Shown piece by piece: positions 1 through 64,000 of a stretch of DNA of 64,000 bases. A program made the translations under genes and the position numbers. Position 1 is the stretch's first letter; every line of letters begins with the position of its first letter. Origin of the DNA: an uncultured bacterium (GTDB lineage Bacteria > Patescibacteriota > Minisyncoccia > Phycocordibacterales > PALSA-1337); NCBI GenBank assembly GCA_963851055.1, contig CAWKMY010000006.1, positions 14,663-78,662 on the forward strand, given 5' to 3'. The notes under the pieces are model-generated. The model did no database searches, had not been told where the DNA came from, and worked only from the letters and a program-made list of their open reading frames with translations.

Positions 1-103
1 TTAATATTCAAAGTTCATTGCAGAGACTACCAGAGATAAGCATAAACGTCAAACCCGCACAGTCTTGTACTAGCTGGGCGGGTATAGAGATCAAATGATC
101 TCT

Positions 104-147
104 GGAAAAATCGGCTCCGAACCGCACCACCAGCGCGGTCCGGAGCC
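104..147 (-). terminator. Intrinsic terminator: nested GC hairpin (ggctccg/cggagcc with inner accgc/gcggt) followed by a T-run on the minus strand
   Basis: Stem 113-119/141-147, inner stem 121-125/135-139, then gattttt on the minus strand (106-112). Confidence 0.5.
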
Positions 148-460
148 ATGGGATTAGCTCCCATATCTGTAGGTGAACGAGGTTTATACGCCTTTCACGA
201 AGGCGCTCAGAAGGGCGACGCGGCCATTGGGGGGCGCTGTCCAGCTCGCGTCGCTAAGCAAAACCTCTATGCCAACCCTAAACGGACAGCGAAAGTAAAA
301 TCAGTTAGCGACTATTCTAGGGGAAAATATAGCATATGTGGTTTTTGGGCGCAACAAAGTATCCTATGGCGTCGTGATGATAAATCGGTGGCGTCGCCTA
401 CGCAAAGCTACGGCGACATCCTACAAAAACACAGTCGTTCACTGTGTTCACTCCTTGTCT

Positions 461-823
461 TTGTGGAGATGCGCGGAATTGAACCGCGGTGCAATCGAAG
501 TTAGATCGGCTGATTCTACGACGGTAGTATCATTTGAATTTAATGGCTGTGATAGAAAACGAAACAAAATACACAGCCACGATCTCTAAGATTCGGTCAA
601 AGGAGTGAGAAGCTCCCCTGCCCTACTTCCCGATTATTACGCCTGACTCTAGAGTATGGATCCCCCTAGAGAGACGCGCCCTTATACAAGAGCGAATGCG
701 AAATCGCGTTCCGTAAAATACGGAGAAACGGTTTTAGCAATTAGGATTTCCGGCGGATTTACGAGTCACTGGAGCTCGCGCCGCACGGCCGAAAACTGAC
801 GATTGTCGATGCCTGTCATCCCC
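461..823 (-). ncRNA. ssrA: tmRNA (transfer-messenger RNA, ssrA), standard one-piece form
   Basis: The minus-strand 5' end is GGGGAUGACAGGCAUCGAC (conserved GGGGxUG...GGxUUCGAC acceptor/D-analog). The 3' end has T-arm CGCGG-TTCAATT-CCGCG then acceptor strand CATCTCC plus discriminator A. The acceptor pairs with the 5' end including the G3:U wobble (alanine identity). It lies directly downstream of smpB. A candidate tag ORF on the minus strand (738 to 685, stop 684-682) reads AKTVSPYFTERDFAFALV. Confidence 0.8.
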
Positions 824-870
824 AAGTTGGGAGTAAACCGTAATTAGTAAACGGTAAACAGAGACTGTTC

Positions 871-895
871 TTTCTGTTTACGGTTTACTGATTAC
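871..895 (-). promoter_or_regulatory. Conserved upstream element of ssrA (copy of the rpsL upstream motif), 48-72 nt 5' of the tmRNA 5' end
   Basis: 23/25 identity to 44504-44529; sits inside a larger inverted-repeat region 835-900. Confidence 0.5.
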
Positions 896-929
896 TGATT
901 ACTGCATTTCTCAACGATCCTTCATTGCC

Positions 930-1352
930 CTACTCCATCTCACGGTCGGATTCGCGGCGCATTATAGACGCTCTTTTATCATGTTTCTTCTTGCCGCGGA
1001 CTATAGCCACCTGAACCTTGATGAGATTGCGCTTAGTATATATCGAAATAGGCACTATTGTCAAGCCCTTGGCCGCATTGGCGAAGCCGGCTATCTCCTT
1101 CTTTGAGAGAATCAGGCGTCGCTGGCGGCGTGGTTCATAATCTTTCGGCGTATTTTTCTCCTGATACGGCGATATGAGCATGCCTTGCAGAAATGCCTCG
1201 CCTCCTTTGATCAAAACGTATGACCCTTCGAGCGATCCATGCTTCAACTTGAGCGATTTCACTTCCAAACCGAGCAGCTCTATACCAGCCTCGAATGATT
1301 CGAGGATCTCATAGTCGAAACGGGCTTTGGCGTAGTCGATAAGGTTGGCCAT
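930..1352 (-). CDS. smpB: SsrA-binding protein SmpB
   Basis: 140 aa with RFDYEILESFEAGIELLGLEVKSL and C-terminal basic tail typical of SmpB; immediately upstream of tmRNA. Confidence 0.9.
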   Translation of the reverse strand: MANLIDYAKARFDYEILESFEAGIELLGLEVKSLKLKHGSLEGSYVLIKGGEAFLQGMLISPYQEKNTPKDYEPRRQRRLILSKKEIAGFANAAKGLTIVPISIYTKRNLIKVQVAIVRGKKKHDKRASIMRRESDREME

Positions 1353-1416
1353 GGCTTCATTATCGTAGCATAATTAAAACAGAGGAGTATAATTAACCTG
1401 AAAGGAAATTAGAACC

Positions 1417-1695
1417 ATGAAAAATCAATTGTTCGCAATGAAGATCAGACTCGGAAAACCAGCTGATCCAAAAAATCTATCGCTATGGAAAATTGGCCTC
1501 GTATTATTCATTGGAGGCCTTGTGATGCTAACTGCTTCGGCAATTGCCGGCAGTTTTTACTGGCCATACACTCCACCAGGATATGTTTCTGGCCTTTTGC
1601 TCTCTGGCATGGTCGCTGTTTTTCAGGCATTTCTGTTTCAATTTGTGAGCAACACTGTTTACCGTAAATCGGATGAACCTAGCCAAACCAGTTAA
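1417..1695 (+). CDS. Small hypothetical membrane protein (2 predicted TM helices)
   Basis: 92 aa ORF with two hydrophobic segments; no recognisable family. Confidence 0.35.
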   Translation: MKNQLFAMKIRLGKPADPKNLSLWKIGLVLFIGGLVMLTASAIAGSFYWPYTPPGYVSGLLLSGMVAVFQAFLFQFVSNTVYRKSDEPSQTS

Positions 1696-1823
1696 TCGGG
1701 ACTGAATAATAATCGCGCCGCAAGACTTCACTGTCCTGTGGCTTTTTTATATCTTTTGACATTTAACAGTATTCGATTAAGCTAGAGACAAACAGCAAAG
1801 AACAATCAAAACTAAAGGACACT

Positions 1824-2750
1824 ATGAAAGCTTTAATCGTCGGACAAGGCAATGTTGGGAAGGCCTTCGCTCAATCGTCTTCATCGATAGGATGGAAATG
1901 CACATTTTTCCCGGGAAGGATCGCTGATGAAACATTTATCGGTTACGCAAAAGATGCCGACGTCGTTATTATCGCCATATCCACAAAAGATAAAGGCGAG
2001 ATCGAGCTCGGTTTCATCCTTTGCTCGATCGAACTCGGCAAACCAGTTGTCACTGCGGCAAAAGGCGCCGCCGCTTATCACTGGCATATGATCGAACCGC
2101 ATCAAGACAAGGTCGGATTATCTGCAACTGTAGGGGGCGCGAGCGGCATGCGGTCTTTATTTTATTTCATCCACCACCCGATAGATCCGGTCAAGGAAAT
2201 ATTCGGCATCGTGAATGGGACAATAAACCACCATGCGTGGGCAGTCCAAAGCGGCATGACCCATGAAGAAGCGCTTATCGAAGAACAAAAGCTTGGTCTT
2301 TGTGAGCCTGGGAAATTCGGTCTTGCTTCAATCATCAGAGCCGAATTTGATGACGCCAGAAATAAGGCCTCTATCCTGGCCAATTGGTCAGGCTTAGGAG
2401 AGATCGTTACGCCTGATGACTTTAGTTACTCGGTGCTTTCCGAAGCAGAAATAAAAAAGCTGCTAAGCAAATCCGGTAATCGCTTTGTAATCACGATAAG
2501 CAGGCGGCAAAAATACCGCTTCGATATGGAAGGGTTTGCCCTTTACTTGAAGCCATGGCTGATCCAGGGATCTTTCATGGAAAATGCTGCTCGCAAGTTC
2601 CGTGGAGTCTCGACAGACCGTCAGTATAACGCCCTAATGATCAGGACAAAGATAGCTGGTCGGGTAGCGATAGGTGGCATGGGTGCAGGACCAATTCCCA
2701 CAGCCGCAGCTATGCTTGGGGATGCGCGACATTTACTTGGAATCGTTTGA
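1824..2750 (+). CDS. hom: Homoserine dehydrogenase-like NAD-binding dehydrogenase
   Basis: N-terminal GQGNVGKA Rossmann motif, ATVGGASG and GIVNGTINH motifs resembling HSDH catalytic region. Confidence 0.6.
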   Translation: MKALIVGQGNVGKAFAQSSSSIGWKCTFFPGRIADETFIGYAKDADVVIIAISTKDKGEIELGFILCSIELGKPVVTAAKGAAAYHWHMIEPHQDKVGLSATVGGASGMRSLFYFIHHPIDPVKEIFGIVNGTINHHAWAVQSGMTHEEALIEEQKLGLCEPGKFGLASIIRAEFDDARNKASILANWSGLGEIVTPDDFSYSVLSEAEIKKLLSKSGNRFVITISRRQKYRFDMEGFALYLKPWLIQGSFMENAARKFRGVSTDRQYNALMIRTKIAGRVAIGGMGAGPIPTAAAMLGDARHLLGIV

Positions 2751-2770
2751 AGCCATGACAGCAAATAATA

Positions 2771-2801
2771 CCGCGAAGCCATGAGCTCCGCGGCTTTTTT
2801 A
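2771..2801 (+). terminator. Rho-independent terminator after hom
   Basis: ccgcg/cgcgg stem with 13-nt loop followed by cttttttatt. Confidence 0.5.
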
Positions 2802-2820
2802 TTCTGCTATACTTCTCTTC

Positions 2821-3906
2821 ATGTCCCTCTCCCCCGTATCTTGGACCCTATACACCTCGAATGAAGAAGCCTGGGACTCTATGTTCGCCGATTGTGCCGC
2901 AGCCAAGGAATCGATCGTTCTGGAACAATACATATTCGTCAATGACGAGTTCGGCAAGAAGCTCATAGACGTCTGCGTCGAGCGAGCTTCGAAAGGGGTC
3001 AGGGTCAGATTTCTCTGGGATGCCGAGGGATCATTTACTCTTTGGGGCTCGAATATGGCCGAGGATCTAAAGAAGAAAGGCATCGATCTCGTATTCTGGA
3101 AAACTCTAGTTCCGGACTATTCAAAAGTGCCGAATTGGAGGTCATGGTTCTTGCGCAATCACCGCAGAACATTGGTTATAGATGAAAAAATAGGTTACAC
3201 GGGAAGCATGTGCATATATGAGAAGATGAAGAATTGGCGAGACACCAATGTGCGACTGGAAGGCGGCGTCGTCCGCGAGATGGAAAATGCATTCGACCGC
3301 ATGTGGGCCAGAGCGACGAAGACTCACAACACTATGCCCAAGCGCCTCAAAGTCCGAGACCGAGAATTCCGCTATATCACTAACTATCCAACTCCTGGCC
3401 GACGCCATATATATGCCGAGATGGTCGAGGCCATCCGTTCTGCTAGACATTACATTTACATAACTACTCCATATTTTGTTCCCACGCATAGGCTCATAAG
3501 AGTCATCCGCTTGGCGGCGCGGCGAGGCGTTGACGTCAAAATCATCGTCCCAGAGGCTTCTAACTGGCTGGCGGCCGATCTCGGAGCACGATCTTATTTC
3601 AATACATTACTAGAATCCGGTGTGCGTATCTTTCTTTACTCCGGCAACATGATCCATGCAAAAACGGCCGTCATAGATGGTGATTGGGCCACAGTTGGAA
3701 CCATGAACTTGGACCGCATAAGTCTGCTCTATAACTACGAGGCGAATATCGTCAGCTCAAATACGAAATTTGCCGAAGAAATGGCAGCCCTATTCGTCAG
3801 AGATATGGCTGAATCGAAAGAGGTTGATACCGAGAAATGGCATAATAGATTCTTCGTTGAAAGGATACCGGAAATCCTTATACGATTTGTCAGAAAGTTC
3901 CTATAA
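2821..3906 (+). CDS. Phospholipase D family protein (cardiolipin synthase-like), two HKD-type motifs
   Basis: Canonical HAKTAVIDGDWATVGTMNLD HKD motif plus an N-terminal degenerate HxR motif (NHRRTLVIDEK). Confidence 0.7.
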   Translation: MSLSPVSWTLYTSNEEAWDSMFADCAAAKESIVLEQYIFVNDEFGKKLIDVCVERASKGVRVRFLWDAEGSFTLWGSNMAEDLKKKGIDLVFWKTLVPDYSKVPNWRSWFLRNHRRTLVIDEKIGYTGSMCIYEKMKNWRDTNVRLEGGVVREMENAFDRMWARATKTHNTMPKRLKVRDREFRYITNYPTPGRRHIYAEMVEAIRSARHYIYITTPYFVPTHRLIRVIRLAARRGVDVKIIVPEASNWLAADLGARSYFNTLLESGVRIFLYSGNMIHAKTAVIDGDWATVGTMNLDRISLLYNYEANIVSSNTKFAEEMAALFVRDMAESKEVDTEKWHNRFFVERIPEILIRFVRKFL

Positions 3907-3979
3907 ACCTAGTAAAATGGCCAAATACCTCGGTGTTGCTTAAAATGCCGCCGCATGCTATAAATACAGCCTGTAATCA

Positions 3980-4486
3980 TTGATGAAAGCACGTATCAAC
4001 CACCAGATAAAGGCCGCCGAACTGCGTGTAATAACCGCAGAAGGCGAGAATCTAGGCACTTTGCCTACAGATAAGGCCCTCGCGGAAGCCCGGAATCGGG
4101 GACTCGACCTTATCGAGATATCTCCGAATGCCGTGCCGCCGGTGGCCAAGATCATGGATTACGGCAAGTATCAGTACGATGAAAAGAAGAAGTCCAAAGT
4201 AGCCAAGACCAAGTCAAAGCAGAGCGAGCTCAAGACTGTTCAGGTGAAGATAGGCACAGGCGAGCATGACCTAGAGCTCAAAGCCAAGCGCGTATCTGAA
4301 TGGCTGTCCGGCGGCGACAGGGTCAAGATCGACCTTTACCTTGTAGGTCGCTCCAAATATATGGATTTCAATTTCCTGAAAGAACGCCTAGAGCGCATAT
4401 ACAAGCTCATAACCGTTGAATTCAAGGTCGCCCAAGAAGCGGTCAAAGGTCCAAAAGGTTTGACGGTCTATGTCGAAAAGAAATGA
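3980..4486 (+). CDS. infC: Translation initiation factor IF-3
   Basis: INHQIKAAELRVITAEGENLG...DLIEISPNAVPPVAKIMDYGKYQY, classic IF-3; first gene of infC-rpmI-rplT. Confidence 0.85.
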   Translation: MMKARINHQIKAAELRVITAEGENLGTLPTDKALAEARNRGLDLIEISPNAVPPVAKIMDYGKYQYDEKKKSKVAKTKSKQSELKTVQVKIGTGEHDLELKAKRVSEWLSGGDRVKIDLYLVGRSKYMDFNFLKERLERIYKLITVEFKVAQEAVKGPKGLTVYVEKK

Positions 4487-4734: not shown

Positions 4735-4786
4735 TCGTATTATTCGTATCATTTGTATTATTCGCAAATTCGTATATTAAACTACC
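4735..4786 (+). promoter_or_regulatory. Repeated ATTCGTAT(CATT) motif cluster in rpmI-rplT intergenic region
   Basis: attcgtattattcgtatcatttgtattattcgcaaattcgtatatt directly before the rplT start. Similar attcgtatcatt/attcgtatatt words lie just upstream of rplB (30042-30088) and map (12271-12305). Confidence 0.3.
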
Positions 4787-5131
4787 ATGACCAGAGTAAA
4801 GAAAGCCGTTAATGCCCTGAAGAACCGCCGAAATGTCCTTCGCCAGACCAAAGGTTTCCGTTTCCGCCGTTCCAACACTGAGCGCGCCGCCAACGAAGCT
4901 TTGGCCCATGCCGGTGCATATTCATTCGCCCATCGTCGCGACAAGAAAGGTGACATGCGCCGCCTATGGAATGTAAAGATAAACGCCGCTCTCCGCCCTC
5001 TCGGCTTCACCTACTCAAAGTGGATAGGGGCCGCCAAGAAGAAAGGCATCGCCCTCGACCGCAAGGCTTTAGCTCATCTCGCTGAATTCAAGCCTGAAAT
5101 CTTCAAGAGGGTTGCGGAATCGGTTAAATAG
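4787..5131 (+). CDS. rplT: 50S ribosomal protein L20
   Basis: MTRVKKAVNALKNRRNVLRQTKGFRFRRSN... typical L20. Confidence 0.9.
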   Translation: MTRVKKAVNALKNRRNVLRQTKGFRFRRSNTERAANEALAHAGAYSFAHRRDKKGDMRRLWNVKINAALRPLGFTYSKWIGAAKKKGIALDRKALAHLAEFKPEIFKRVAESVK

Positions 5132-6605
5132 AGTACTCCTTCAACCTCTCCGGCACTATCGCCTTTAGTCCCAACTCATCATTTATCCTCTGCGCCAAAT
5201 GCATAGATGCGCCAGGCTCGCCCATGACGACGAATACCTGCTTCAAACGTATTTCTTTTGCACTATTATCTGGATCTCCTGCTGTCGCCACAAATTCAAC
5301 TAGGTGATCGCCGTCCTTATGAGCAGAATAGCCGTAGAGCGTCTCAATCTTTGCATTCACCTTTACTTGTTCGCCATGAATCTTGACCTTCTTTGCTCCA
5401 TCGGCCAATTCCCTGCCGAGTGAACCTGCCGCTTGATATCCGACGAGTAATATAGTGCTCTTGGGATCAGGAAGGAAATATGCTTCATGGCTGATGATGC
5501 GTCCGCCGACTGACATTCCTGAGCCTGCCAATATGATCTTGGCGCCTTTGAAATGTTCTATGCTACGCGACTCGCCTTGGCTTTCAACGAATGTGAGATG
5601 CGGAAATGAGAATATATCATCACCTGAAGCTATCTGCTTTTTTGCTTCATCGTTGAAAAGAGCTTCGCTCTGCTTATATATTTCTGTTACTTTCTGTGCC
5701 AATGGTGAATCGAAATATACCGGAACGGACGGTATGCGCTTTTCTTTCACCAGATTGTTGAGCTCATAGAGAAGTACCTGACTCCTATCTACAGAAAAAG
5801 CCGGAATGACGAGAGTGCCACCGCGGGCCAAGGTATCATTGATGACTTTCTCGAATTGAGGCAATCTTGTCTCACGTGGTTCGTGGTTTCGATCGCCATA
5901 GACGCTTTCCATGACTAGATAATCGACATCGCCTACTGGTTCAGTATCCCTTAGAATCGGCGCCGGCGAATTTCCCAAGTCTCCAGTAAAAAGAATTTTT
6001 GGTTATTGAACTTGATCACCGGATTTTTTTACACTCACCTCAATCATGGATGATCCTAAAATATGCCCAGCATCTTTCAAGAAAATTGATACGCAATCAC
6101 TTATCTTGAAATTCTCGTGATATGGAATAGTCTTCCACAATGGAAAAACCCGAGTAACATCATCGGCACTGTAAATAGGTTCACGACCATCTTCTTTTGC
6201 TTCGCTGGCCAAAATGTTGACAGCATCATTCAAGACCAATTCCGCCAATGCGCGCGTCTCTGACGTTGAATAAATAACTCCTTTGAATCCATCTTTGACC
6301 AATTTAGGAATGCGTCCAACGTGATCGAGGTGAGCATGTGTGACGATGAGTGCTGTTATAGAGCCAGTATCATAAGGAAACGCCTCACTATTTTGCTCAT
6401 TTGCCACGCGCTCACCTTGGACCATACCGCAATCTACGAGGATCTTCGTGCCGGTATTATCTTTGGCTCCATTGGAATCGACACTACCCGCCGTTTCCAA
6501 CAGGAAGTTGGCACCAGTGACTGTGCCGACGCCAGTACAGAAAGTCAGTTTGTTTTTTTGAGGCATATTGATGCTCATTATATGTGAGAAAGCGCCAATA
6601 ACCAA
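5124..6605 (-). CDS. MBL-fold beta-CASP ribonuclease (COG1236/RNase J-like), interrupted by a single in-frame TAA
   Basis: The N-terminal part (6605-6006) has the HAHLDHVG motif. The C-terminal part continues in the same frame after the stop at 6003-6005, with KILFTGDLGNSPAPILRDTEP, DYLVMESVYGDRNHEP and GYSAHKDGDHL beta-CASP motifs. ORFs 6003..6605 and 5124..5978 are both in frame 2 mod 3. Confidence 0.6.
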
Positions 6606-7763: not shown

Positions 7764-8717
7764 CTATTTGAGATGGCGGGAGACCACCTCTATAACCTGT
7801 TCGACTTCGAGCTTCGAGCTGACGCCCTGAGGACTTCCGAAGATGTCCCCACGACCGCCCCAACCAGCTTCTAGGGCTTGAAGTTCCTTCAGCGCAGCCG
7901 GCAGATCGCATGGAACGTGCGAATCATACCGACAAACCGTGAACTTTCTATAGACGCCTTTTGAGGCGTCTTTCGGATCAACGACCATTGCCGGGTTCAC
8001 TGCCACCACCACGAGGGCATTTTCATACCCCAGTCCCGTGGCGAACCGATGCGTGGAAACCACGCAGGCGATCCGGCCATTGGCGTTGAGCGTGAGCTCC
8101 GACGCCTTCCGGGCGGCTTCCAACTCGGCGTCATGCGCCGCGTTCAAAGCGGCGATTTCCGCCGTCTTGTCAGCACTCGCCAACAAGTCGGAGACCCACT
8201 GCACCCGATCAGCCAGCGACAACTTAAAGTCGCAGGCCTTGCGAGCAATGGCCGTAACTACGGCCGACGGCTTCCCAGCCGAAGGTCCGAAACGGTCGAA
8301 ACGGCCGACCTCGTGGACAAGGTTTTCGTCCACAAGTCTACCGATCTGGCGATTTGCCAAAACCGCCATAGCCGTGATGCTATCCGCATCCGGCCGAATC
8401 GTCACCAACGCCTCAAGCGCAAGCGATTCCTGGCCACGTGGCCCAAACTTGGGCTCTGGACCCCAATAGGCCACCGAGGCATCAATGGCCTTCTCGGCCG
8501 CACTCGGCGTTTCCGCCGTATCATCTGGACCATGATGGTCCAGATTGCCCCAGCGGCATTTTGCCGCCAAGCTGGGCACCGTGACCTCGATACCGAGGAC
8601 ATGCCCAGTATGTTTGGCGAATATTTTTTCATTCGCCTCCGCACCCTGCGGACGTGGATCTAACTGATAGAACTTCATAATAAGTTCCTTTCTTGATAGT
8701 TTAATAGGCACCATCAA
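7764..8717 (-). CDS. Hypothetical protein, GC-rich relative to surroundings (possible DHH/DHHA1-like phosphoesterase; weak)
   Basis: 317 aa ORF with protein-like composition; GNLDHHGPDD and C-terminal GWGGRGD motifs; no confident family. Confidence 0.45.
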   Translation of the reverse strand: MMVPIKLSRKELIMKFYQLDPRPQGAEANEKIFAKHTGHVLGIEVTVPSLAAKCRWGNLDHHGPDDTAETPSAAEKAIDASVAYWGPEPKFGPRGQESLALEALVTIRPDADSITAMAVLANRQIGRLVDENLVHEVGRFDRFGPSAGKPSAVVTAIARKACDFKLSLADRVQWVSDLLASADKTAEIAALNAAHDAELEAARKASELTLNANGRIACVVSTHRFATGLGYENALVVVAVNPAMVVDPKDASKGVYRKFTVCRYDSHVPCDLPAALKELQALEAGWGGRGDIFGSPQGVSSKLEVEQVIEVVSRHLK

Positions 8718-9080
8718 GCCTCCTGTTTGACCTCAAGATATCGATTAAGAAATCATTTTGCCTTTCGGCGAATCGATATCGCGAGTTCTCTGTATTCAGC
8801 CAACAGATTGGCTGACTTCACTCGTAAGAGCAAAGATTTCTGTTTTCGTCCTTTTGGACTCATCAGTCCCGACACGCATCGGGAGAACAGAGGAGAATGT
8901 TTTAACCAAAACATCCCCCACATAACCTTGCGACTATTCTTTCTCGGGAAGTCGTCTTTCCCATGGCACTGCATGCCAACTCACCATTTACGGACGGTGA
9001 CAACTTTCCAACTGTTAAAGAACGGTCGGACTTTTACGCACTTCTATTACGAAGGTTGTGCGATCCTTCGTCCTTTCGGA

Positions 9081-9609: not shown

Positions 9610-9648
9610 CCAGCATTTAATTGGTTTCGGCATGCTGGAGCCGTTTTT
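9610..9648 (+). repeat. Direct repeat copy 1 (39 bp) carrying a duplicated start region MPKPIKCW of the downstream membrane-protein gene
   Basis: ccagcatttaattggtttcggcatgctggagccgttt, near identical to 10131-10168. On the minus strand it encodes MPKPIKCWKEK-stop. Confidence 0.6.
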
Positions 9649-9767: not shown

Positions 9768-10154
9768 TTAAGACTCACAACTTTTTTCAAACTCTGACAC
9801 TGCCACTACTCCGATTGGCCCGGCAACCAGTGCCCCAACTGCAACAATCCCATCGCCAGTCAAGTTCAATGACGGCCAAACCATCATCGCCTTGACCCAA
9901 GCTACTGGACCGTGCCTTAAGTGGCCAATCGTAGACACTGCGCTTACGGCCCATAATGCCGTACCCATCGCTGTCACCAGCGCCCACACCATAGCCGCAA
10001 GAAACAGCGGCAATGATGTGGAGTCGTTGTCTGTAATGGTCAAATACCATAGCAGAAACGGCAGGATGGCCGGGCCAGCGATTACCGACACCATGTAGAA
10101 CTTTTTCAATAATTTCACATTATCCTTTTCCCAGCATTTAATTGGTTTCGGCAT
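9768..10154 (-). CDS. Hypothetical multi-pass membrane protein
   Basis: 128 aa, hydrophobic segments; start codon region lies inside repeat copy 2. Confidence 0.45.
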   Translation of the reverse strand: MPKPIKCWEKDNVKLLKKFYMVSVIAGPAILPFLLWYLTITDNDSTSLPLFLAAMVWALVTAMGTALWAVSAVSTIGHLRHGPVAWVKAMMVWPSLNLTGDGIVAVGALVAGPIGVVAVSEFEKSCES

Positions 10155-10168
10155 GCTGGAGCCGTTTT
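10131..10168 (+). repeat. Direct repeat copy 2 (39 bp), overlaps start of ORF 9768..10154
   Basis: Same 39-mer as 9610-9648; contains a 7-bp hairpin ccagcat/atgctgg followed by a T-run. Confidence 0.6.
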
Positions 10169-10524: not shown

Positions 10525-11467
10525 CGTAATGGTTCAATAGCTTGGAATCACCCCAGGTCGTAGGATGATTCCATATGCCATATACATCAAACAAACACAT
10601 GCCTCGCATCAGGAGAGATGCTGCAGAGCTTGTCAGAAGAGGATGGTCAACAAGAAAGGTTGCTCGTCACTTTGGATTCAGTCAAAGCGTCATTGTTAAG
10701 TGGTCGAAGAAAGCGGTGACGTATGGAATCCACCCCATACCAACTCTCTCATCAAGACCAAAGCATCACCCCAGACAATTAAATGATGATTTGATCTGGA
10801 AGATCTTCCACAAGAGACTGCTCATCAGACGAAGTGCTGAAGTGGTTCGTCAAGAGCTCAAGAATGAAGGGACCGGAGTATCTCTTGCTTCAGTAAAGCG
10901 TACGCTTGATCGCATGGGACTCCTGAAGAAGCGCAGTCCGTACAAACGATTCCATCCTCACCAGGATCGTCCAATACCCCTTAAACCAGGCGATTTGGTG
11001 CAGATCGACACCATACACCTCATGGTTGATGGCAAGAGAAGAATATACATATACGTTCTCATCGATGTGTATTCGAGATGGGTGTATGCAAAAGCATATG
11101 AAAAAATCGGAGGTAGGAATAGTTTGAAGTTTGTGAGAGAGGCACAGATACACGCATCATTCCAGTTTCAAATGTTGCAATCAGATCATGGACCAGAATT
11201 CGGTGATTGGTTTGTTGAACAAGTCAAAAAGAATCATCGATATACCCGCATCGGTAAACCAAATGACAATGCGCATATCGAACGATTCAATCGCACAGTG
11301 CAGGAGGAATGTGTGGACAAAGTAGAGAAGACTGTCTATGCACTCAACAAAGCGTTAAAAGTATACATTCCGTATTACAACGAAAAACGCCTTCACTTCG
11401 GCTTAAATTTGAAAACGCCAAGTCAATTTATTGACAAAGTGATTCCAAGCTATTGATTAGAATACGG
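10525..11467 (+). mobile_element. Compact IS element (IS481/IS3-superfamily-like, rve DDE transposase) with 18-bp perfect terminal inverted repeats
   Basis: IRL tcaatagcttggaatcac at 10534-10551. IRR gtgattccaagctattga at 11439-11456, overlapping the transposase stop. Single transposase ORF between them. Confidence 0.7.
10575..11456 (+). CDS. DDE transposase (integrase core domain, IS481-family-like), N-terminal HTH
   Basis: QSDHGPEFGDWF ... GKPNDNAHIERFNRTVQEE integrase-core signature; N-terminal HTH RRGWSTRKVARHFGFSQSVIVKW. Confidence 0.8.
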   Translation: MPYTSNKHMPRIRRDAAELVRRGWSTRKVARHFGFSQSVIVKWSKKAVTYGIHPIPTLSSRPKHHPRQLNDDLIWKIFHKRLLIRRSAEVVRQELKNEGTGVSLASVKRTLDRMGLLKKRSPYKRFHPHQDRPIPLKPGDLVQIDTIHLMVDGKRRIYIYVLIDVYSRWVYAKAYEKIGGRNSLKFVREAQIHASFQFQMLQSDHGPEFGDWFVEQVKKNHRYTRIGKPNDNAHIERFNRTVQEECVDKVEKTVYALNKALKVYIPYYNEKRLHFGLNLKTPSQFIDKVIPSY

Positions 11468-11484: not shown

Positions 11485-12270
11485 TTACGCCGTCAGTATC
11501 TCCGCATCCCCTTTCGTTATGAGTACCGTATGCTCAAAATGTGCACTCGGCTTGCCATCAGCTGTGACATAAGTGTAACCATCCTTGTCTAATTCAACTT
11601 CTCTTCCTCCGAGATTGAACATCGGCTCAATAGCTATGACCATCCCAGGTTTGAGAACTGCTCCTTGCCCAGCTTCACCGTAATTTGGCACATATGGATC
11701 TTCGTGGACGTCATATCCGACTCCGTGGCCAGCCAATTCTTCGACTATGCCATATTTTCCAGCAAGACCAATTCTCTCTATTGCTACGCTTATATCGCCT
11801 ATCTTTTTACCTCCTTTGGCGGCTTTTATACCGGCTAGCATGGCTTTTTTGGTTGTATCGATTAAACGGCTCAACTCTATCGAAATTTTTCCAACCGGTA
11901 CTGTTATAGCCGCATCAGTGATTAAACCTTTATGAGTCAGACCCAAATCAAGTGTTACAATGTCGCCTTCTTTGAGGATTTTCTCACCTTCATTCGGAAT
12001 ACCATGGACAACTTCATCATTTATGGAAACACACAGAGCTGCAGGAAAAGGCCTCTTTGCACCTTGTGGTTTGTAATTGAGAAATGCCGGCTTATCACCA
12101 TTTGCGGCAATAAGTTCGCGTGCACAATTTTCTAGCTCAATAGCGCGGACACCAGGCTTCACCATAGCCGCCAATTCACGCAAAATTTCCGCGTGGCGTC
12201 TACCACCTTCGCGCATGATCGCAATATCTTCCTTTGTCTTCGTTGTTATCATATATATAATCCGAATCAA
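11485..12270 (-). CDS. map: Methionine aminopeptidase type I
   Basis: VVHGIPNEGEKILKEGDIVTLDLG ... metal-binding residues typical of MetAP-I. Confidence 0.9.
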   Translation of the reverse strand: MIRIIYMITTKTKEDIAIMREGGRRHAEILRELAAMVKPGVRAIELENCARELIAANGDKPAFLNYKPQGAKRPFPAALCVSINDEVVHGIPNEGEKILKEGDIVTLDLGLTHKGLITDAAITVPVGKISIELSRLIDTTKKAMLAGIKAAKGGKKIGDISVAIERIGLAGKYGIVEELAGHGVGYDVHEDPYVPNYGEAGQGAVLKPGMVIAIEPMFNLGGREVELDKDGYTYVTADGKPSAHFEHTVLITKGDAEILTA

Positions 12271-12305
12271 CGGATCTTATCCGAATGATGCGAATATAAA
12301 ACAGA

Positions 12306-12911
12306 CTATACCAATCCAACCCTTTTCACAATGTCGGCGTGAATCTCTTCTATGGAGCGTTCTCCATCGATGTCCAGAAAGCGAACATTCGGGTTTGTCT
12401 TGTACCACTCTATAGTAGGGGTAACGTCGGCTTCGAATGCCTTCTGGCGTTCGAGCAATTCCTCCTCTCCGTCGTCAACACGACCACTGGTCTTACCGCG
12501 AAGCTTGAGGCGACCGGCGGATTCTGCATGTTCTACGTCCAGATATATGACCCAGGGCTTTTCCAAGTCATAGAATGGAGCAAGCGATTCCAATATCTTC
12601 GCCTCCAAAAGCTTGCGAGGTGTACCGTCAAAAACTATGTGTAGAGATCCATTATATTCTTCAATAAGACGCTTGCCCCAAACGTATACGCACATAAATT
12701 CCGGCATCAAATCTCCGGCTTCGACGATCTTCTTGCTATGTTTAGCTGTATAACTATCGCCAGCCATGAATTTCCTGAATTCAGCGCCAGTCTCGACATA
12801 AAGGACTCCATGAGATGAGTCCGCTTTCTTCAACGCCTCAATTAGAAGCTTCGCTTGTGTACCCTTACCTGCGCCGTAACGACCGATGAAGATGAATGAT
12901 TGAGGTTTCAT
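12306..12911 (-). CDS. adk: Adenylate kinase
   Basis: GRYGAGKGTQAKLL P-loop, LID region with RxDD. Confidence 0.9.
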   Translation of the reverse strand: MKPQSFIFIGRYGAGKGTQAKLLIEALKKADSSHGVLYVETGAEFRKFMAGDSYTAKHSKKIVEAGDLMPEFMCVYVWGKRLIEEYNGSLHIVFDGTPRKLLEAKILESLAPFYDLEKPWVIYLDVEHAESAGRLKLRGKTSGRVDDGEEELLERQKAFEADVTPTIEWYKTNPNVRFLDIDGERSIEEIHADIVKRVGLV

Positions 12912-12932
12912 GAGCCATAGTATAACAAAATC

Positions 12933-14204
12933 CTAATACTCCCTCATCGCCACCTGTGCATCTATCTTCTTGAGCAAATCTAGAACCACAGAGACGACAA
13001 TCAAAAGCGCCGTACCGCCGATGGCCAGAGTAGTACCACCAGTGAAGTTCTGCAAAGCTAGAGGAAGGACCGCCACAACACCTAGGAATAGAGCGCCAAC
13101 CAGAGTGATACGAGTGACGATATTGGCCAGATAATCACGGGTGTGGTCGCCTGGACGGACGCCTGGGATAAACGCGCCACCCTGCTGGAGATTCTGCGAT
13201 ATCATAGCAGGATCGAAGGTGACAGCTGTATAGAAATAAGTGAAAGCTACAACCAGTAGGAAGTAGAAACCTCCATAGACCCAAGGATTATTGAAGAATA
13301 TAGCGAATGAAGTGGCGTAAGCGGCTACGGTCGCATTCGAAGCGTGTGTGAGGAAATTGGCGATGATTTGAGGGAAGAGCAAGATAGAAAGGGCAAATAT
13401 TATCGGAATAACGCCGGCTTGGTTCAAGCGAAGAGGTAAATATGTAGAAGCGCCGCCGTAGACTTTGTTGCCGCGTACCTGCTTTGCATAAGTGACCGGC
13501 ACCGATCGCTCTGCTTCAGTGACGAAAACAACGCCGGCGATGACGATGAGAGCGATGACCAGTACGGCTAGATACACGGCTATCTGGGATGAATCGAAGG
13601 TGGTCCAGAACTGGATGGCATCTTTCGGTAGACGAGCTACGATACCGGCAAAGATGATGAGCGAAACGCCATTGCCGATGCCAAATTCGGAGATGAGCTC
13701 ACCGATCCACATGAGCAATATAGAGCCGGCAGAGACGACGATAGTCGAGATCACCAAAGTGCCAGTGCCGAGATGTGGTAATACATTCTGATTCTCGAGG
13801 AGGAGTATGAAACCTACAGCTTGAATCAAAGCCAATGGTACAGCCATCAGACGCGAATATTGCGAGAGCTTCATGCGACCGGCTTGGCCTTCCTCATGCA
13901 TCAGAGCTTTCCATTTCGGGAACATCATGGTCAGGAGCTGGATGATGATGGAAGCGGTGATGAATGGGCCTACACCGAGCATAACAATAGAAAGATTGGA
14001 AAGGCCTCCTCCAGAGAAGATATTCAGGAAACCGAAGAATTGGCTAGACGAGAGTAATTTTGCCAGAGCGGCTGCATCGACGCCGGGCATAGGGATGGCC
14101 GCCAAGAGACGGAAAATAACCAGAGCAGCAACAGTAAAGCCGATCCTCTTGCGCAAGATGGGATCTTTCAGTGCTAAAGCTATTTTTTGTCCGAAGTTTT
14201 GCAT
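12933..14204 (-). CDS. secY: Preprotein translocase subunit SecY
   Basis: 423 aa, 10 TM protein with SecY signature; position after rplO in spc operon. Confidence 0.9.
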   Translation of the reverse strand: MQNFGQKIALALKDPILRKRIGFTVAALVIFRLLAAIPMPGVDAAALAKLLSSSQFFGFLNIFSGGGLSNLSIVMLGVGPFITASIIIQLLTMMFPKWKALMHEEGQAGRMKLSQYSRLMAVPLALIQAVGFILLLENQNVLPHLGTGTLVISTIVVSAGSILLMWIGELISEFGIGNGVSLIIFAGIVARLPKDAIQFWTTFDSSQIAVYLAVLVIALIVIAGVVFVTEAERSVPVTYAKQVRGNKVYGGASTYLPLRLNQAGVIPIIFALSILLFPQIIANFLTHASNATVAAYATSFAIFFNNPWVYGGFYFLLVVAFTYFYTAVTFDPAMISQNLQQGGAFIPGVRPGDHTRDYLANIVTRITLVGALFLGVVAVLPLALQNFTGGTTLAIGGTALLIVVSVVLDLLKKIDAQVAMREY

Positions 14205-14349: not shown

Positions 14350-14379
14350 TTGACGAAAAGGTATTGAGTATGCTATAAT
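14350..14379 (+). promoter_or_regulatory. Near-consensus sigma70 promoter (TTGACG-N18-TATAAT with TGc extended -10)
   Basis: ttgacg at 14350-14355, tataat at 14374-14379, about 50 nt upstream of ORF 14430. Confidence 0.5.
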
Positions 14380-14429
14380 ATGATTAAAGAAGTTAGTTCG
14401 TTTCCATCAACAATCAACCCCTTAAGATA

Positions 14430-14738: not shown

Positions 14739-14844
14739 TCAATCGGGTTATGGGTGACACCTTAAAACATAACAAGTCACTCAAGATTTCCCCGGCGACC
14801 GACTTAACTGTTGGCCGCCGGTATTCTTTTACCTAATCTAGCTT

Positions 14845-14906: not shown

Positions 14907-14927
14907 TCGGTCTGATACAGTTTCTTA

Positions 14928-48582: not shown

Positions 48583-48732
48583 AGACTACTACTCATTGAC
48601 ATCACCCCTTTATTTGTCCTACACTTATGCCAGTGAAATACCTTGAGAGTTTCGAGATTCTCTAAGAGCGGAAAATTCGGGTCGGCCGCCAGCGTTCGCT
48701 TTACCGCGAATATGCAGTATGGAGGGATCGCC

Positions 48733-50540: not shown

Positions 50541-50554
50541 TTTACTGGGACAGC

Positions 50555-50616
50555 GATAAAGAAACGCTCAAAAAGTAATCAAAAAACGCCTAATTTTCGC
50601 TCAAAATTCGCCTAAG
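50555..50616 (-). repeat. 62-bp modular interspersed repeat, copy 4, 14 nt upstream of comEC start
   Basis: rc reads cttaggcgaattttgagcgaaaattaggcgttttttgattactttttgagcgtttctttatc. Confidence 0.8.
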
Positions 50617-50638
50617 AAACTCAAGGTTAAACCTTGAG
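50612..50638 (-). terminator. Intrinsic terminator after rnhA (palindrome ctcaagg..ccttgag then tttctt on minus strand)
   Basis: Perfect 7-bp stem 50620-50626/50632-50638 immediately after rnhA stop. Confidence 0.45.
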
Positions 50639-61497: not shown

Positions 61498-61498
61498 A

Positions 61499-63247
61499 TT
61501 ATTCTGATACTACTCTTAATACTTCCTCTATAGTCGTCAATCCTGAGACGCACTTGAATATACCATCCTCCAACATGGTAAGCATGCCTTCGGACTTGGC
61601 CTGTTTCTCTATTTCCGATGAAGCGGCCCCTTTCATTATGAGGTCTTTGATGGTCTGACTCATCTTCAGGACTTCATGTATGCCTACGCGACCCTTGAAA
61701 CCGTCATCATCGCTTCCCGCCACAGGTTTATAAAATGTTATATCTTTCCAATCATCCTCGGGTTTGACTATTTTTTCCGCCTTGAGGACATCCAGAACGC
61801 GCTTCATATCCACGAGCTTCTCCAGTTGGGCAAATTCGGCTTTGGAAAGATAATACCTCTCTTTCCCGTCCGTCAGGCGCCGGACCAAACGCTGGCCGAT
61901 GACTATGTCCAGGGTCGAAACGAGAAGAAACGACTCTACTTTCATATCCAAGAGGCGTGGTATGGCTCCGGCGGCGCTATTGGTATGCAAGGTCGAAAGG
62001 ACCAAGTGGCCGGTCAGGGCGGCATTCACGGCCAAAGCCGCCGTCTCATTGTCGCGAATTTCACCCACCATGATGATGTCAGGATCTTGACGGACTAGAG
62101 TGCGTATTCCCTGGGCAAATGAAAATCCGATATCCGGCCGCACCTGGGTCTGATTGATGCGGGCCATCTGATATTCTATCGGATCCTCGATGGTGGAGAT
62201 ATTCACATCCGGCGTGTTCAATATATCCAGCATGGTGTAGAGAGTCGTAGTTTTACCGGAACCGGTCGGTCCGGTAGTCAGGATCATTCCCGTCGTCTGC
62301 TGTAATGCCTGATGTATTCTTTCCAAACTCTCGCCGTGGAATTGCAGAAATTCCAATGTGAAGCCGGATATGCTGTCGCGCAAGAGGCGCATAACTATCT
62401 TCTCGCCATAATAAGTCGGTAGTATAGACACGCGGAAAGAGACTTTTTCATTCGTCAGGTCCACTTTGAAGCGGCCGTCCTGCGGCAGACGCTTCTCATC
62501 GAGCTTCAGGTTCGAGAGCACCTTGATGCGGGCGGACACGGAAGGTCCGGCCTGCCTCGGGAGCACCATGGCGTCATGGAGAAGGCCGTCAATGCGATAA
62601 CGAACGAGCACCTGTTCTTCCATAGGCTCTATATGTATGTCAGAAGCATTCTGGAGGATAGCGTGCTTTATGAGGGTATCCACGATACGAACGACCGGCA
62701 GATCGTCGGCCAATTTTTTCAGGTCTTCTTCGGATGCCAGCTCGCCCTTCTCTTCCGATATCATCTTCAGAGTGTCTGTCTCCTTTTGGATGATATCTCC
62801 AAATTCCGCTTTAAGGGACTTCTGATATTGCACCAGAGCCTCTTTTATGGAATCGCTGTCCGTGAGCCTTGGCACGATCTTCAAGTTCACTTTCTTCTTT
62901 ATAAAATCGATAGCCGAAAGGTCGTTCACGTCCAACATGGCTACCTCGAGAGAGACATCGTTCTTCTTGAAAGCGACGATATTGTGAGTGCGAGCGATAG
63001 GCTCCGGTATGAGCGAGAGAGTCTCGAATGGCACTTTCTTGCCTTTGAGGTCGACAAATGGAATGCCCAGCACGTATGCCTGCATGCGCCGCAAGTTGTC
63101 GGCGGTTATCTTTCCTTGGGTCACGAGAATGTCGCCGAGGCGCTTATTCTGCTTGTCCGCATCCGTTTTGGCTTTCTCCAAGTCGTCCTTGGTGACGAGC
63201 CCCGAGTCGAGGATGAATTTATAGAGCTGGGTGTCTTCGATGAGCAT
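61499..63247 (-). CDS. pilB: Type IV pilus assembly ATPase PilB (GspE family)
   Basis: Walker A GPTGSGKTTTLY, Asp box, His box; N-terminal GSPII domain. Confidence 0.9.
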   Translation of the reverse strand: MLIEDTQLYKFILDSGLVTKDDLEKAKTDADKQNKRLGDILVTQGKITADNLRRMQAYVLGIPFVDLKGKKVPFETLSLIPEPIARTHNIVAFKKNDVSLEVAMLDVNDLSAIDFIKKKVNLKIVPRLTDSDSIKEALVQYQKSLKAEFGDIIQKETDTLKMISEEKGELASEEDLKKLADDLPVVRIVDTLIKHAILQNASDIHIEPMEEQVLVRYRIDGLLHDAMVLPRQAGPSVSARIKVLSNLKLDEKRLPQDGRFKVDLTNEKVSFRVSILPTYYGEKIVMRLLRDSISGFTLEFLQFHGESLERIHQALQQTTGMILTTGPTGSGKTTTLYTMLDILNTPDVNISTIEDPIEYQMARINQTQVRPDIGFSFAQGIRTLVRQDPDIIMVGEIRDNETAALAVNAALTGHLVLSTLHTNSAAGAIPRLLDMKVESFLLVSTLDIVIGQRLVRRLTDGKERYYLSKAEFAQLEKLVDMKRVLDVLKAEKIVKPEDDWKDITFYKPVAGSDDDGFKGRVGIHEVLKMSQTIKDLIMKGAASSEIEKQAKSEGMLTMLEDGIFKCVSGLTTIEEVLRVVSE

Positions 63248-63286
63248 GTTGGGTTAATTGTACCAGATTACTATTGTATGGCCTAC

Positions 63287-63547
63287 TCAAGTAATTTCAA
63301 TTGTGATAGTAAGCTCTTTAGACATATCTGGTACTGGGTTTTCACCCAAATAATCATTTTTGGGACGGAATTTGTGCATGAATTTGATCATTTCAAGATC
63401 TTCATCCTCCATTTCCTTAGAAAATATAATCTCCATAGCTAGACCAGCCTCTTCTTTGTCCATACGACCGTCCTCTAGCATCTTAAATACACAATTGATC
63501 GCTTCTGTGACTTTATCTGGCTTCATTTTTGTTTTATTTTTTCTCAT
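63287..63547 (-). CDS. Hypothetical acidic small protein
   Basis: 86 aa ORF; no family. Confidence 0.25.
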   Translation of the reverse strand: MRKNKTKMKPDKVTEAINCVFKMLEDGRMDKEEAGLAMEIIFSKEMEDEDLEMIKFMHKFRPKNDYLGENPVPDMSKELTITIEIT

Positions 63548-63559
63548 ATCTTCAAAAGA

Positions 63560-63997
63560 TTATTTTCTTTTAATCATTCCAAGTGCTTTCACCTCCTTCT
63601 TCAACTGCCGAATATGTTTTTCTGGTTTTAGATTCTCCGGCATTTCACTACCAAGATCTTTCATGGCTTTACGGACTCTTTTTCCCACATCAAAATGCGT
63701 TCGCCTTGAATCCAGGTCACCTTTGATGTTTTCACGTCTAAGTTTTGCTTCAGTTTGTGTTATACGGAACATGTTCGCACCCAATTCCTCCGAGCCGGCT
63801 CGGTCTAGCAATTGTCCTTTCGGTATCTGTTTCTTTGTTTCGATTTCTGTAAGAGACATACTGTATAGACCTTTGTATCCAGCATCATTAAATAGACCAA
63901 AATGCGAAACTCCCGCCAAACGGGCTGTGCTGAATAATAGTTTATTCTTGTCGCTGACTTCTTCGCGTTTCTGTATTCTCTTTTCGGCTTCTGACAT
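63560..63997 (-). CDS. Hypothetical protein
   Basis: 145 aa, Lys/Glu-rich; start codon at 63995-63997. Confidence 0.35.
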   Translation of the reverse strand: MSEAEKRIQKREEVSDKNKLLFSTARLAGVSHFGLFNDAGYKGLYSMSLTEIETKKQIPKGQLLDRAGSEELGANMFRITQTEAKLRRENIKGDLDSRRTHFDVGKRVRKAMKDLGSEMPENLKPEKHIRQLKKEVKALGMIKRK

Positions 63998-64000
63998 CCC

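Follow-up and report, generated by a model that had tools for sequence, protein, structure and literature searches.

The str, S10 and spc operons are a textbook example of conserved bacterial gene order, and together they form the standard syntenic marker block for phylogenies of the candidate phyla radiation (CPR). The limits of the S10 and spc operons are taken here as defined in Escherichia coli. Among the systems closest to what we describe are the hotspots of horizontal gene transfer (HGT) reported by Oliveira et al. in Nat Commun in 2017, said to be few core-gene-flanked intervals that concentrate gene gain, loss and replacement; many of them reportedly lack identifiable mobile-element genes, and their turnover is ascribed to recombination within the core genes on either side. 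For the ribosomal cluster itself, a stepwise "insert, then disconnect" model has been described in other bacteria, and the four insertions detailed there lie between operon pairs or in rpoBC (rplL|rsmC) of Gammaproteobacteria and Bacilli (Brandis 2021, PMC8046335). Here, we analyzed a stretch of 64,000 nucleotides (the window; positions 14,663 to 78,662 of contig CAWKMY010000006.1, assembly GCA_963851055.1) in which the str-S10-spc cluster is interrupted by accessory genes at six junctions, and compared it with the same locus in related genomes. The searchable literature yielded no account of ribosomal operons broken up in this way in CPR.

Recurrent junctions with differing content

Six-frame open reading frame (ORF) calling and Pfam scans of the concatenated ORFs indicated a CPR-type genome with a GC content of 47%, and the window represents authentic chromosomal DNA from Candidatus Taylorbacteria (Paceibacteria, CPR). 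The cluster keeps the canonical gene order on the minus strand, starting with rpsL (44455) and ending with map (11485), with all expected genes (rpsL-rpsG-fusA-tuf-rpsJ...rplO-secY-adk-map) detected except rpmD, the absence of which is commonly reported for CPR. It is not contiguous: six junctions contain 0.7 to 7 kb of other genes, and these gene groups split it into seven modules. This confirmed the original prediction of a minus-strand operon broken at six or more points and ending after map at an insertion sequence (IS), and the gene groups at the six junctions, with their orientations, match those listed in it. Inserts 4 and 6 (counting from rpsL) are wholly antisense to the operon, while antisense cargo in the other inserts consists of a histidine kinase, MazF, PurO, a GNAT protein and ORF284. 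Sense cargo comprises a RelE-like pair, ORF306, a methyltransferase, a cupin, ORF269 and two surface proteins. A decaying second copy of the cluster was considered and rejected, since these genomes are smaller than 1 Mb, the genes are otherwise intact and relatives carry the same single cluster.

Relatives were collected by an RpsC-anchored scan with one genome per species, which gave 28 Taylorbacteria/Paceibacteria loci (S3 identity of 77 to 94%) and 9 outgroup loci, the closest relative being a closed 876-kb chromosome (OY969557.1). Window proteins were mapped onto these loci, and the 19 junctions from tuf to secY were considered for expansions of at least 0.7 kb. The rplB|rpsS junction was expanded in 17/21 clade loci, by up to 8.5 kb, and rplE|rpsN-rpsH in 9/11, with 9 more loci in which >2 kb followed rplE without rpsH. 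Expansion was also found at rplP|rpmC (3/26 loci) and rplC|rplD (1 or 2 of 16), and the other 15 junctions were expanded in none of the clade loci. Outgroup loci (Sungiibacteriota, Alphaproteobacteria and Bacilli) were compact. An S7-anchored metagenome scan showed rpsG|fusA to be expanded by 0.45 to 4 kb in 23 of about 36 loci and fusA|tuf to be likewise variable. The rplO|secY junction was compact in all 7 relatives that cover it, which makes insert 6 specific to the window. In this lineage, short ribosomal-gene modules make up the cluster, with a small number of fixed slots between them, namely, rpsG|fusA, fusA|tuf, rplB|rpsS and rplE|rpsN, less often rplP|rpmC and rplC|rplD, and in the window also rplO|secY. 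Many independent genomes have slots at these same positions, with a content that differs and is replaceable in place.

The variability of this content is considerable, as 114 of the 208 gap ORFs had no homolog in any other gap. At rplB|rpsS, relatives hold an aminotransferase with an Orn/DAP decarboxylase, MacB/HlyD exporters, a penicillin-binding protein, alpha-2-macroglobulin, PemK and HicA, and at rplE|rpsN a PIF1 helicase (8 loci), an ECF sigma factor with DUF5667, pyruvate kinase, a major facilitator superfamily (MFS) transporter and PemK. Many small paired ORFs occupy rpsG|fusA, including MazE, HicA, YafQ, ParE, RelB, ORF6N and a Cas2-like PaaX_M. In the closest relative, L001, an antisense Gp49/HigB and HTH antitoxin pair was found at rplC|rplD and a 975-aa Ig-like surface protein at rplP|rpmC. 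Homologs of the antisense histidine kinase of the window are located at rplB|rpsS in 8 relatives (L001, L006, L010, L013, L014, L015, L024 and L026), so that this gene is a conserved resident of the slot, and homologs of the surface proteins adjoin tuf or fusA in L001-L005, L008, L030, L038-L042, L045, L064 and L088. Each slot contains a semi-conserved resident plus variable extras. A view of the cargo as selfish alone does not hold, given the ordinary chromosomal genes found in relatives (aminotransferase/decarboxylase, ABC transporter, PIF1 helicase, ECF sigma factor and pyruvate kinase).

Replacement in place could be followed in L002, L004 and L030, which share about 89 to 93% DNA identity across the ribosomal modules. 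The PIF1 proteins of L002 and L004 are 95% identical, and the aminotransferase, small ORF and decarboxylase that form their rplB|rpsS cassette have protein identities of 27, 40 and 41%, respectively. A version 82 to 83% identical to that of L004 is found in L027, a more distant relative, and L030 has no cassette. This divergence or absence, with flanks of about 89 to 93% identity, indicates in-place replacement and loss rather than vertical divergence.

Composition separates the cargo in a similar manner. Core ribosomal genes of the window have a GC content of 0.490 ± 0.023, and values resembling it were found in the histidine kinase, ORF306, PurO, GNAT and surface-protein genes. Low values characterize the methyltransferase (0.369), cupin (0.365), ORF122 (0.382), MazF (0.383), Panacea (0.390) and nucleotidyltransferase (0.417) genes and the RelE-like pair (0.42), and ORF269 is the only one with high GC. 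The small cassettes overall deviate by 3 to 5 standard deviations (SD), with the methyltransferase and cupin >5 SD below the core genes, so the deviation from the flanks that had been predicted for the inserts applies to some of the genes and not to those with native-like values. The split in GC coincides with which genes are conserved in relatives. Judging by composition and distribution, the histidine kinase and surface proteins look like old native residents, and the low-GC cassettes (RelE-like pair, Panacea pair, nucleotidyltransferase, MazF, cupin plus methyltransferase, and ORF122) look recent. Such residents share the slots with small cassettes of foreign composition, many of which resemble toxin-antitoxin modules.

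These data qualify the idea of a core operon repeatedly invaded at an integration hotspot. Synteny across relatives supports recurrent, non-random junctions with turnover, and hence a hotspot in place of random drift, expansions being found at few junctions with different cargo, but site-specific integration found no backing in any recombinase, att-like repeat or tRNA. Repeated invasion does not describe every insert: the histidine kinase occupies its slot in 8 relatives, the surface proteins have homologs beside tuf or fusA in many, and both are native in GC, which in part matches the refuting case named in the original prediction, that of ancestral lineage genes. Likewise, the arrangement is highly unusual for bacteria in general and typical of this lineage.

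Explanations of the split cluster

We consider it probable that these junctions are permissive break points with recombination-driven turnover, forming lineage-wide slots in a split str-S10-spc cluster. A founder insertion, for example, of the antisense histidine kinase, would break co-transcription at a junction, and the downstream module would gain its own promoter, making the intergenic site selectively permissive. Later gains, losses and replacements could then pile up at this site, while elsewhere they would disrupt ribosomal-protein expression. Relatives would probably exchange cassettes by taking up DNA and recombining it homologously within the conserved ribosomal genes on either side, a plausible route; the window itself encodes ComEC and type IV pilus genes. 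Toxin-antitoxin modules may persist through addiction, and recent antisense cassettes would bring their own promoters, including a shared 63-nucleotide (nt) element described below.

The pattern in the window and its relatives fits the stepwise model (Brandis 2021, PMC8046335). As in the alterations described there, a few genes were inserted into a conserved cluster, later full disconnection is found (here in L039, L047 and L108), particular lineages show raised rates of alteration and an IS element occurs within the cluster. Unlike those cases, the breaks at rplB|rpsS, rplP|rpmC, rplE|rpsN and rplO|secY lie inside the S10 and spc operons and are clade-wide and hypervariable. The difference from HGT hotspots in general is that the flanks here are adjacent ribosomal-operon genes, normally the least permissive, in genomes of <1 Mb. 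What is unusual is the presence of several recurrent hypervariable slots inside the S10/spc operons, with positions conserved across a CPR clade and rich in toxin-antitoxin-like cassettes at rpsG|fusA. The result is a comparative pattern, real and lineage-wide, rather than a new molecular mechanism. If the clade tolerates such slots, it offers a natural system for asking how much ribosomal co-transcription is needed, and it would show where tiny genomes store a flexible gene pool, including toxin-antitoxin modules. Contigs of the ribosomal block would also carry DNA of foreign composition in such lineages, affecting binning and marker extraction. In addition, recombination-driven exchange in uncultivated bacteria becomes amenable to testing through the in-place replacement of cassettes between genomes about 90% identical.

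Several observations weigh against this explanation. Promoter-like sites are located directly upstream of tuf (33730-33703), rpsS (26046-26018), rpmC and rpsN, and strong consensus promoters precede ORF102 and the DUF3800-II RNA of insert 4, but promoter-like and terminator-like sites were not above shuffled sequence (31 versus 28.1 and 30 versus 24.5, respectively), so that re-initiation after each insert is not established. For secY, the 225 nt before the gene contained no promoter-like site. The nucleotidyltransferase gene of insert 4 and rplP are convergent, with stop codons 1 nt apart (24139-24141) and no terminator between them; their transcripts must therefore overlap and some read-through is likely, which makes read-through and antisense transcription possible in place of clean modularity. 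Recombination was not detected in the flanks, where no obvious mosaic identity appeared in the ribosomal genes of L002, L004 and L030. Finally, events in relatives share ancestry, so that the junction counts are not counts of independent events, and many of the compared loci are contigs of metagenome-assembled genomes (MAGs) of uncertain completeness.

A more elaborate proposal takes the fixed ribosomal junctions of Taylorbacteria and their Paceibacteria relatives as integrase-free slots for small toxin-antitoxin, defence and regulatory cassettes with a portable 63-nt promoter, swapped by transformation and homologous recombination with the ribosomal genes as homology arms, and with antisense transcription coupling cassette expression to ribosome synthesis. 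We consider this combination rather unlikely. The slots do resemble integron and superintegron arrays in that small, often promoter-bearing cassettes, including toxin-antitoxin modules, are found at fixed sites and vary between relatives. In contrast to integrons, there is no IntI integrase, attI/attC site, repeated site at cassette ends or tandem array, and the sole integrase domain in the window is that of the IS transposase. The defining features were looked for without being found, so the slots qualify neither as an integron nor as an integrative element or transposon array.

It is quite unlikely, in our assessment, that site-specific mobile elements (integrase-, transposase- or integron-like) target the junctions, with the 63-nt repeat as their recombination site. 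An IS with perfect inverted repeats does end the cluster, a homolog of the nucleotidyltransferase is found elsewhere beside a large serine recombinase, and cassettes of the window and of L001 alike have the 63-nt element in front of them, with a weak copy before a MazF homolog in L004. Nevertheless, none of the six inserts contains a recombinase or transposase gene, direct and inverted repeats at their borders were at chance level only, and no tRNA gene is located at the inserts. The element behaves differently from an att site as well. The shared 62-bp repeat of the original prediction does exist, as a repeat of about 63 nt with four copies in the window. Two are in the cluster on the plus strand (14843-14926 and 18569-18654, before ORF122 and MazF, respectively), and two are on the minus strand outside it, at 47842-47925 (R1 88.7 bits), upstream of a 323-aa ORF (46906-47877), and at 50535-50619 (R1 87.7 bits), upstream of a ComEC gene (49173-50540; Pfam Competence, 165 bits). 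Since it also precedes these two comEC-related genes, it is not an insertion scar. Another copy was found in L001 (4473-4557) before a HigBA-like pair, and the weak copy of L004 is directly upstream of the MazF homolog; apart from these two, the element was not found in 72 related loci, nor was it found in viral contigs. It contains four TT(A/G)(G/A)GCG boxes with 11-nt spacing, is always gene-oriented and present once per cassette, and is located 21 to 24 nt upstream of an ATG. A −10-like hexamer follows it, with the ATG 6 to 7 nt on. In three cases (MazF, the ComEC-domain gene and the 323-aa ORF), the ORF as called has an earlier in-frame ATG and this one comes second. A single gene-oriented copy per cassette is the behavior of a promoter, and from its layout we infer a shared promoter/operator module and not a recombination site. 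With this arrangement, the mRNAs may be leaderless, and toxin-like genes and comEC may answer to one regulator.

Purely vertical descent, in which all the intervening genes would be ancestral in a lineage-specific extended operon without any hotspot, seems very unlikely. It accounts for the histidine kinase found at rplB|rpsS in 8 relatives, for the surface-protein homologs next to tuf or fusA in many of them and for the PIF1 helicase at rplE|rpsN in 8 relatives, these genes having native GC. It does not account for gap ORFs that are mostly singletons, for cassettes present, absent or swapped for versions with 27 to 41% identity between genomes whose flanks are about 89% identical, for insert 6, which none of the 7 relatives with a covered rplO|secY junction has, or for the GC of small cassettes, 3 to 5 SD off. 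We give equally little credence to functional coupling, by which the inserted genes would act on the translation apparatus and be placed for co-regulation. The RelE/YoeB-like protein, MazF, the SAM (S-adenosyl-L-methionine)-methyltransferase and the GNAT protein plausibly act on ribosomes or mRNA, the cupin and the nucleotidyltransferase are further candidates, and toxin-antitoxin modules recur at rpsG|fusA in relatives. However, the same slots in relatives hold aminotransferase/decarboxylase genes, ABC exporters, a penicillin-binding protein, PIF1 helicase, pyruvate kinase and an MFS transporter, and most of the recent cassettes are antisense with their own promoters and so are not co-transcribed.

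An assembly or binning chimera, with accessory genes misjoined to ribosomal-gene fragments, is extremely improbable: single-base indels in the fusA, rplC, M50 protease and RNase J-like genes do reveal an imperfect consensus and the 63-nt repeat, at which Logan contigs end, could in principle misjoin, but an independent assembler gave the same junctions without gaps at 99.8 to 100% identity, about 20 independent MAGs from other studies are expanded at the same junctions and the nearest relative, with its closed chromosome, has the same pattern. The independent evidence comes from Logan contigs of run ERR10755936, retrieved by exact-protein look-ups. Five of them match the window at 99.8 to 100% with no gaps: L119 (14888-18628), L122 (18610-22253), L118 (22262-25248), L121 (25219-29198) and L120 (42666-43665). 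They cover inserts 1, 3, 4, 5 and 6, insert 2 lying outside these contigs, and span the junctions ORF122|rplO, MazF-ORF269|rplE, nucleotidyltransferase|rplP, cupin|rpsS and histidine kinase|rplB, as well as both borders of insert 1. They break at the 63-nt repeat, as expected of a multi-copy sequence. The interrupted cluster is not an assembly chimera.

Frame disruptions occur in the source assembly. The fusA gene was read as two ORFs owing to one extra A near 41228, the removal of which restores a 714-aa EF-G, and rplC has a 1-nt indel near 31655; the M50 protease gene is in four ORFs (45392-46071) and a beta-CASP/RNase J-like gene in two (5124-6605). These are probably consensus indel errors, fusA and rplC being essential single-copy genes. 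Neither RpsC and RplD nor the N-terminal ORF of the truncated FusA had an exact protein match in the public collection.

Modules and inserts

The seven modules, all on the minus strand and identified by Pfam, are as follows. Module 1 (43525-44455) contains rpsL (44033-44455; Ribosom_S12_S23, 107 bits) and rpsG (43525-about 43992; Ribosomal_S7, 182 bits). Module 2 (40657-42802) is fusA, with GTP_EFTU, EFG_III, EFG_IV and EFG_C, and module 3 (29190-33571) comprises tuf, rpsJ, rplC, rplD, rplW and rplB. Module 4 (24141-26019) contains rpsS, rplV, rpsC and rplP, module 5 (20449-22207; also on Logan contig L122) rpmC, rpsQ, rplN, rplX and rplE, and module 6 (15435-18420; also on L119) rpsN, rpsH, rplF, rplR, rpsE and rplO, with rpsN detected by tblastn to relatives. 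Module 7 (11485-14204) is formed by secY (SecY, 331 bits), adk (ADK) and map (Peptidase_M24). Some of the ribosomal proteins are extended: L15 (15435-16112) has a lysine-rich repeat tail, S5 (16072-16851) an N-terminal extension of roughly 100 aa, and L23 (30085-30585) and S10 (31952-32350) also have N-terminal extensions. Short sequences, such as TAAACTACCATG, recur around ribosomal-protein start codons in place of a Shine-Dalgarno motif (4778-4802, 20997-21021, 21242-21276 and 43983-44017). In L039, L047 and L108, ribosomal modules are rearranged at the same break points, with fusA or rpsG directly before the rpsH-rplF-rplR-rpsE-rplO module in some of them.

Insert 1 (42946-43418, minus strand), between rpsG and fusA, consists of a 69-aa ORF (43209-43418; GC, 0.424), a putative antitoxin by position and size, and an 83-aa ORF (42946-43197; GC, 0.421). 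Both are also on Logan contig L120 between rpsG and fusA. They are co-oriented, with the putative antitoxin first and an 11-nt spacer, which is the layout of RelBE/YoeB-type pairs. The RelE/antitoxin pair predicted here thus holds as to layout, and the 83-aa ORF (ORF83) gave weak but concordant matches in three libraries, to Pfam HigB-like (E value of 8e-5; 23.4 bits against a cutoff of 27), NCBIfam Txe/YoeB (7e-5; 22.9 bits against 51.8) and PHROG RelE-like (5e-5); every score is below the cutoff and no RelE-superfamily model exceeded its curated one, so we describe the protein as putatively RelE/YoeB/HigB-like. The 69-aa ORF had no family match in library profile searches.

Insert 2 (33805-40585), between fusA and tuf, starts on the fusA side with a PurO-type IMP cyclohydrolase gene (39839-40585, plus strand; Pfam IMP_cyclohyd, 139 bits; PDB 2ntk, E value of 7e-5). 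No PurO homolog was found at this position in any fetched relative. It is an archaeal-type enzyme in a CPR genome, with native GC. On the same strand follow a GNAT acetyltransferase gene (38855-39364; Acetyltransf_7/_1), with a terminator-like hairpin after it (39382-39407), and ORF284 (37925-38779), a membrane-anchored protein of no assigned family with a 59%-identical homolog after fusA in L042. Two secreted or surface proteins of native GC, of 781 aa (PG_binding_1 and TIG) and 506 aa (PKD), are encoded on the minus strand (33805-37678). Of the genes predicted for this insert, the surface proteins, GNAT and PurO were recovered, while the "transglycosylase-like" label of ORF284 found no Pfam or PDB match.

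Insert 3 (26064-29082), between rplB and rpsS, contains the cupin, SAM-methyltransferase, unknown and histidine kinase genes exactly as predicted. The orphan histidine kinase (28264-29082, plus strand; HATPase_c, 77 bits, and HisKA; GC, 0.499) is followed on the minus strand by ORF306 (27170-28090), with a terminator-like hairpin at 27148-27124 and no match in Pfam, NCBIfam, PADLOC or PHROGs. The methyltransferase (26419-27093; Methyltransf_11) and cupin (26064-26411; Cupin_2) genes form a minus-strand pair (26064-27093) that is also found on Logan contig L121 adjoining rpsS.

Insert 4 (22264-24139), between rplP and rpmC, is entirely on the plus strand. It opens with a promoter-like site (22264-22291), a DUF3800-II RNA (22297-22361; Rfam RF02961, full length, 53.5 bits against a gathering score of 43.2) and a terminator-like hairpin (22359-22377). 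This RNA has been described with a neighboring DUF3800 gene (Weinberg 2017, PMC5737381). No DUF3800 gene was detected among the scanned window proteins, and the neighbor of the RNA here is a SocA_Panacea gene (22431-22943; 64.8 bits against a cutoff of 25.7), followed by ORF129 (22958-23347), the two spanning 22431-23347. The same Panacea-ORF129 pair is located at an unrelated locus in the Taylorbacteria genome GCA_001821305.1 and was seen in 8 assemblies, which makes it a portable two-gene module. The RNA was found neither beside the pair of that other genome nor in the loci of five relatives. Kurata et al. reportedly described, in PNAS in 2022, PanAT toxin-antitoxin systems with a Panacea-domain antitoxin. 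The present pair resembles them in having a SocA_Panacea gene and, 12 to 14 nt on, a small conserved partner, and in its different locations across genomes. It differs in that ORF129 matches no known toxin family and in the DUF3800-II RNA that precedes the pair here and not in the other genome. ORF129 belongs to a highly conserved family with 178 CPR homologs (62 to 73% identity), some of them named RelE by JGI, and had no match in Pfam, NCBIfam, PADLOC, PHROG or PDB. The RelE-like label of the original prediction is putative for this ORF. Its AF2 model is poor (pLDDT of 57), and a fold search on such a model is uninformative.

The antisense Panacea gene had been predicted together with an ANT(6)-like resistance gene, for which we found distant fold resemblance only. 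The gene in question (23372-24139) encodes a 255-aa Pol-beta-type nucleotidyltransferase with weak matches to Pfam Polbeta and NTP_transf_2. Its score against Adenyl_transf (PF04439) was 18.5 bits, below the cutoff of 22, and covered only profile positions 8 to 51 of 279; NCBIfam gave no match. The AF2 model is confident (pLDDT of 94), and its top Foldseek matches in PDB were ANT(6)-Ib, LinB, ANT(4') and HalB, with TM scores of 0.3 to 0.53 and 11 to 17% identity. The best one, ANT(6)-Ib, has a TM score of 0.43 and 17% identity, and ANT(4'), LinB, Hailong HalB and MNT antitoxins score alike. The family has >150 Patescibacteria proteins. Because of the partial, sub-cutoff ANT(6) match, the low-TM fold matches and this family, the predicted structure is best read as a two-domain Pol-beta nucleotidyltransferase of unassigned substrate and not as a resistance gene. 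A 68%-identical homolog on L124 is the last of an HTH-ORF219-nucleotidyltransferase set (623-4170) beside a large serine recombinase, which suggests that the gene travels on integrative elements in other CPR genomes. PDB sequence searches with ORF83, ORF129, the nucleotidyltransferase and ORF284 gave no matches, PADLOC gave sub-threshold hints only and NCBIfam gave nothing of use for the unassigned ORFs.

Insert 5 (18569-20312), between rplE and rpsN, carries the predicted MazF and GC-rich ORF. ORF269/244 (19578-20312, minus strand; GC, 0.565; GC3, 0.71) has 436 homologs, all from Patescibacteria, hypothetical and without a Pfam domain. The 63-nt element (18569-18654; R1 84 bits) and the MazF/PemK toxin gene (18645-19085) form a plus-strand unit (18569-19085); the toxin matches PemK_toxin with 38.3 bits against a cutoff of 23.1 and PHROG MazF-like with an E value of 3e-15, and its GC is 0.383. 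No MazE-type antitoxin ORF was found upstream of MazF, where the space is taken by the element and rpsN. The spacer between MazF and ORF269 has two consensus promoters with 11 of 12 matches, each followed by a strong terminator hairpin (19215-19421 and 19075-19152, both on the minus strand). Folding of the longer product, of about 170 nt, gave a z score of −3.0, and this product matched no Rfam family; the shorter one is antisense to the 3' end of MazF, which it overlaps. Both are candidate small RNAs, possibly an RNA antitoxin.

Insert 6 (14350-15296), between rplO and secY, has the two small plus-strand ORFs and the consensus promoter anticipated for it. The promoter (14350-14379; TTGACG-18-TATAAT, 11/12 matches with TG) precedes ORF102 (14430-14738), which has a membrane helix and a zinc ribbon, the latter with weak matches only, this unit spanning 14350-14738. 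The second unit (14843-15296) comprises the 63-nt element (14843-14926; R1 70.9 bits) and ORF122 (14928-15296; GC, 0.382), which has a weak LPD3 match (E value of 2e-4, below cutoff) and whose junction with rplO is on Logan contig L119.

Surrounding features

The IS that ends the cluster after map (10534-11456, plus strand) measures 923 bp and encodes an rve-family transposase (10575-11456; rve, 38.2 bits; rve_3, 52.6 bits; HTH_23). Perfect 18-bp inverted repeats at 10534-10551 and 11439-11456 complete the structure of a DDE (rve) IS. No target-site duplication was seen around it, the flanks being different (...AATGGT versus TTAGAA...). Just past the IS, a perfect 38-nt direct repeat (9610-9647 and 10131-10168) brackets a 128-aa ORF, and the nearby kilobase 8001-9000 is GC-rich (0.548), with ORFs without a Pfam match.

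Other genes in the window include the transfer-messenger RNA (tmRNA), smpB, infC-rpmI-rplT, the type IV pilus genes and ComEC. In the region 46467-50540 (minus strand), the ComEC-domain gene and the 323-aa ORF are each followed by a PBECR2 or PBECR3 nuclease-like ORF, and a superoxide dismutase gene is located between the two on the opposite strand. The 323-aa ORF had no Pfam match and by eye resembles the C-terminal MBL-like domain of ComEC, so that this region looks like a split comEC with toxin-like partners.

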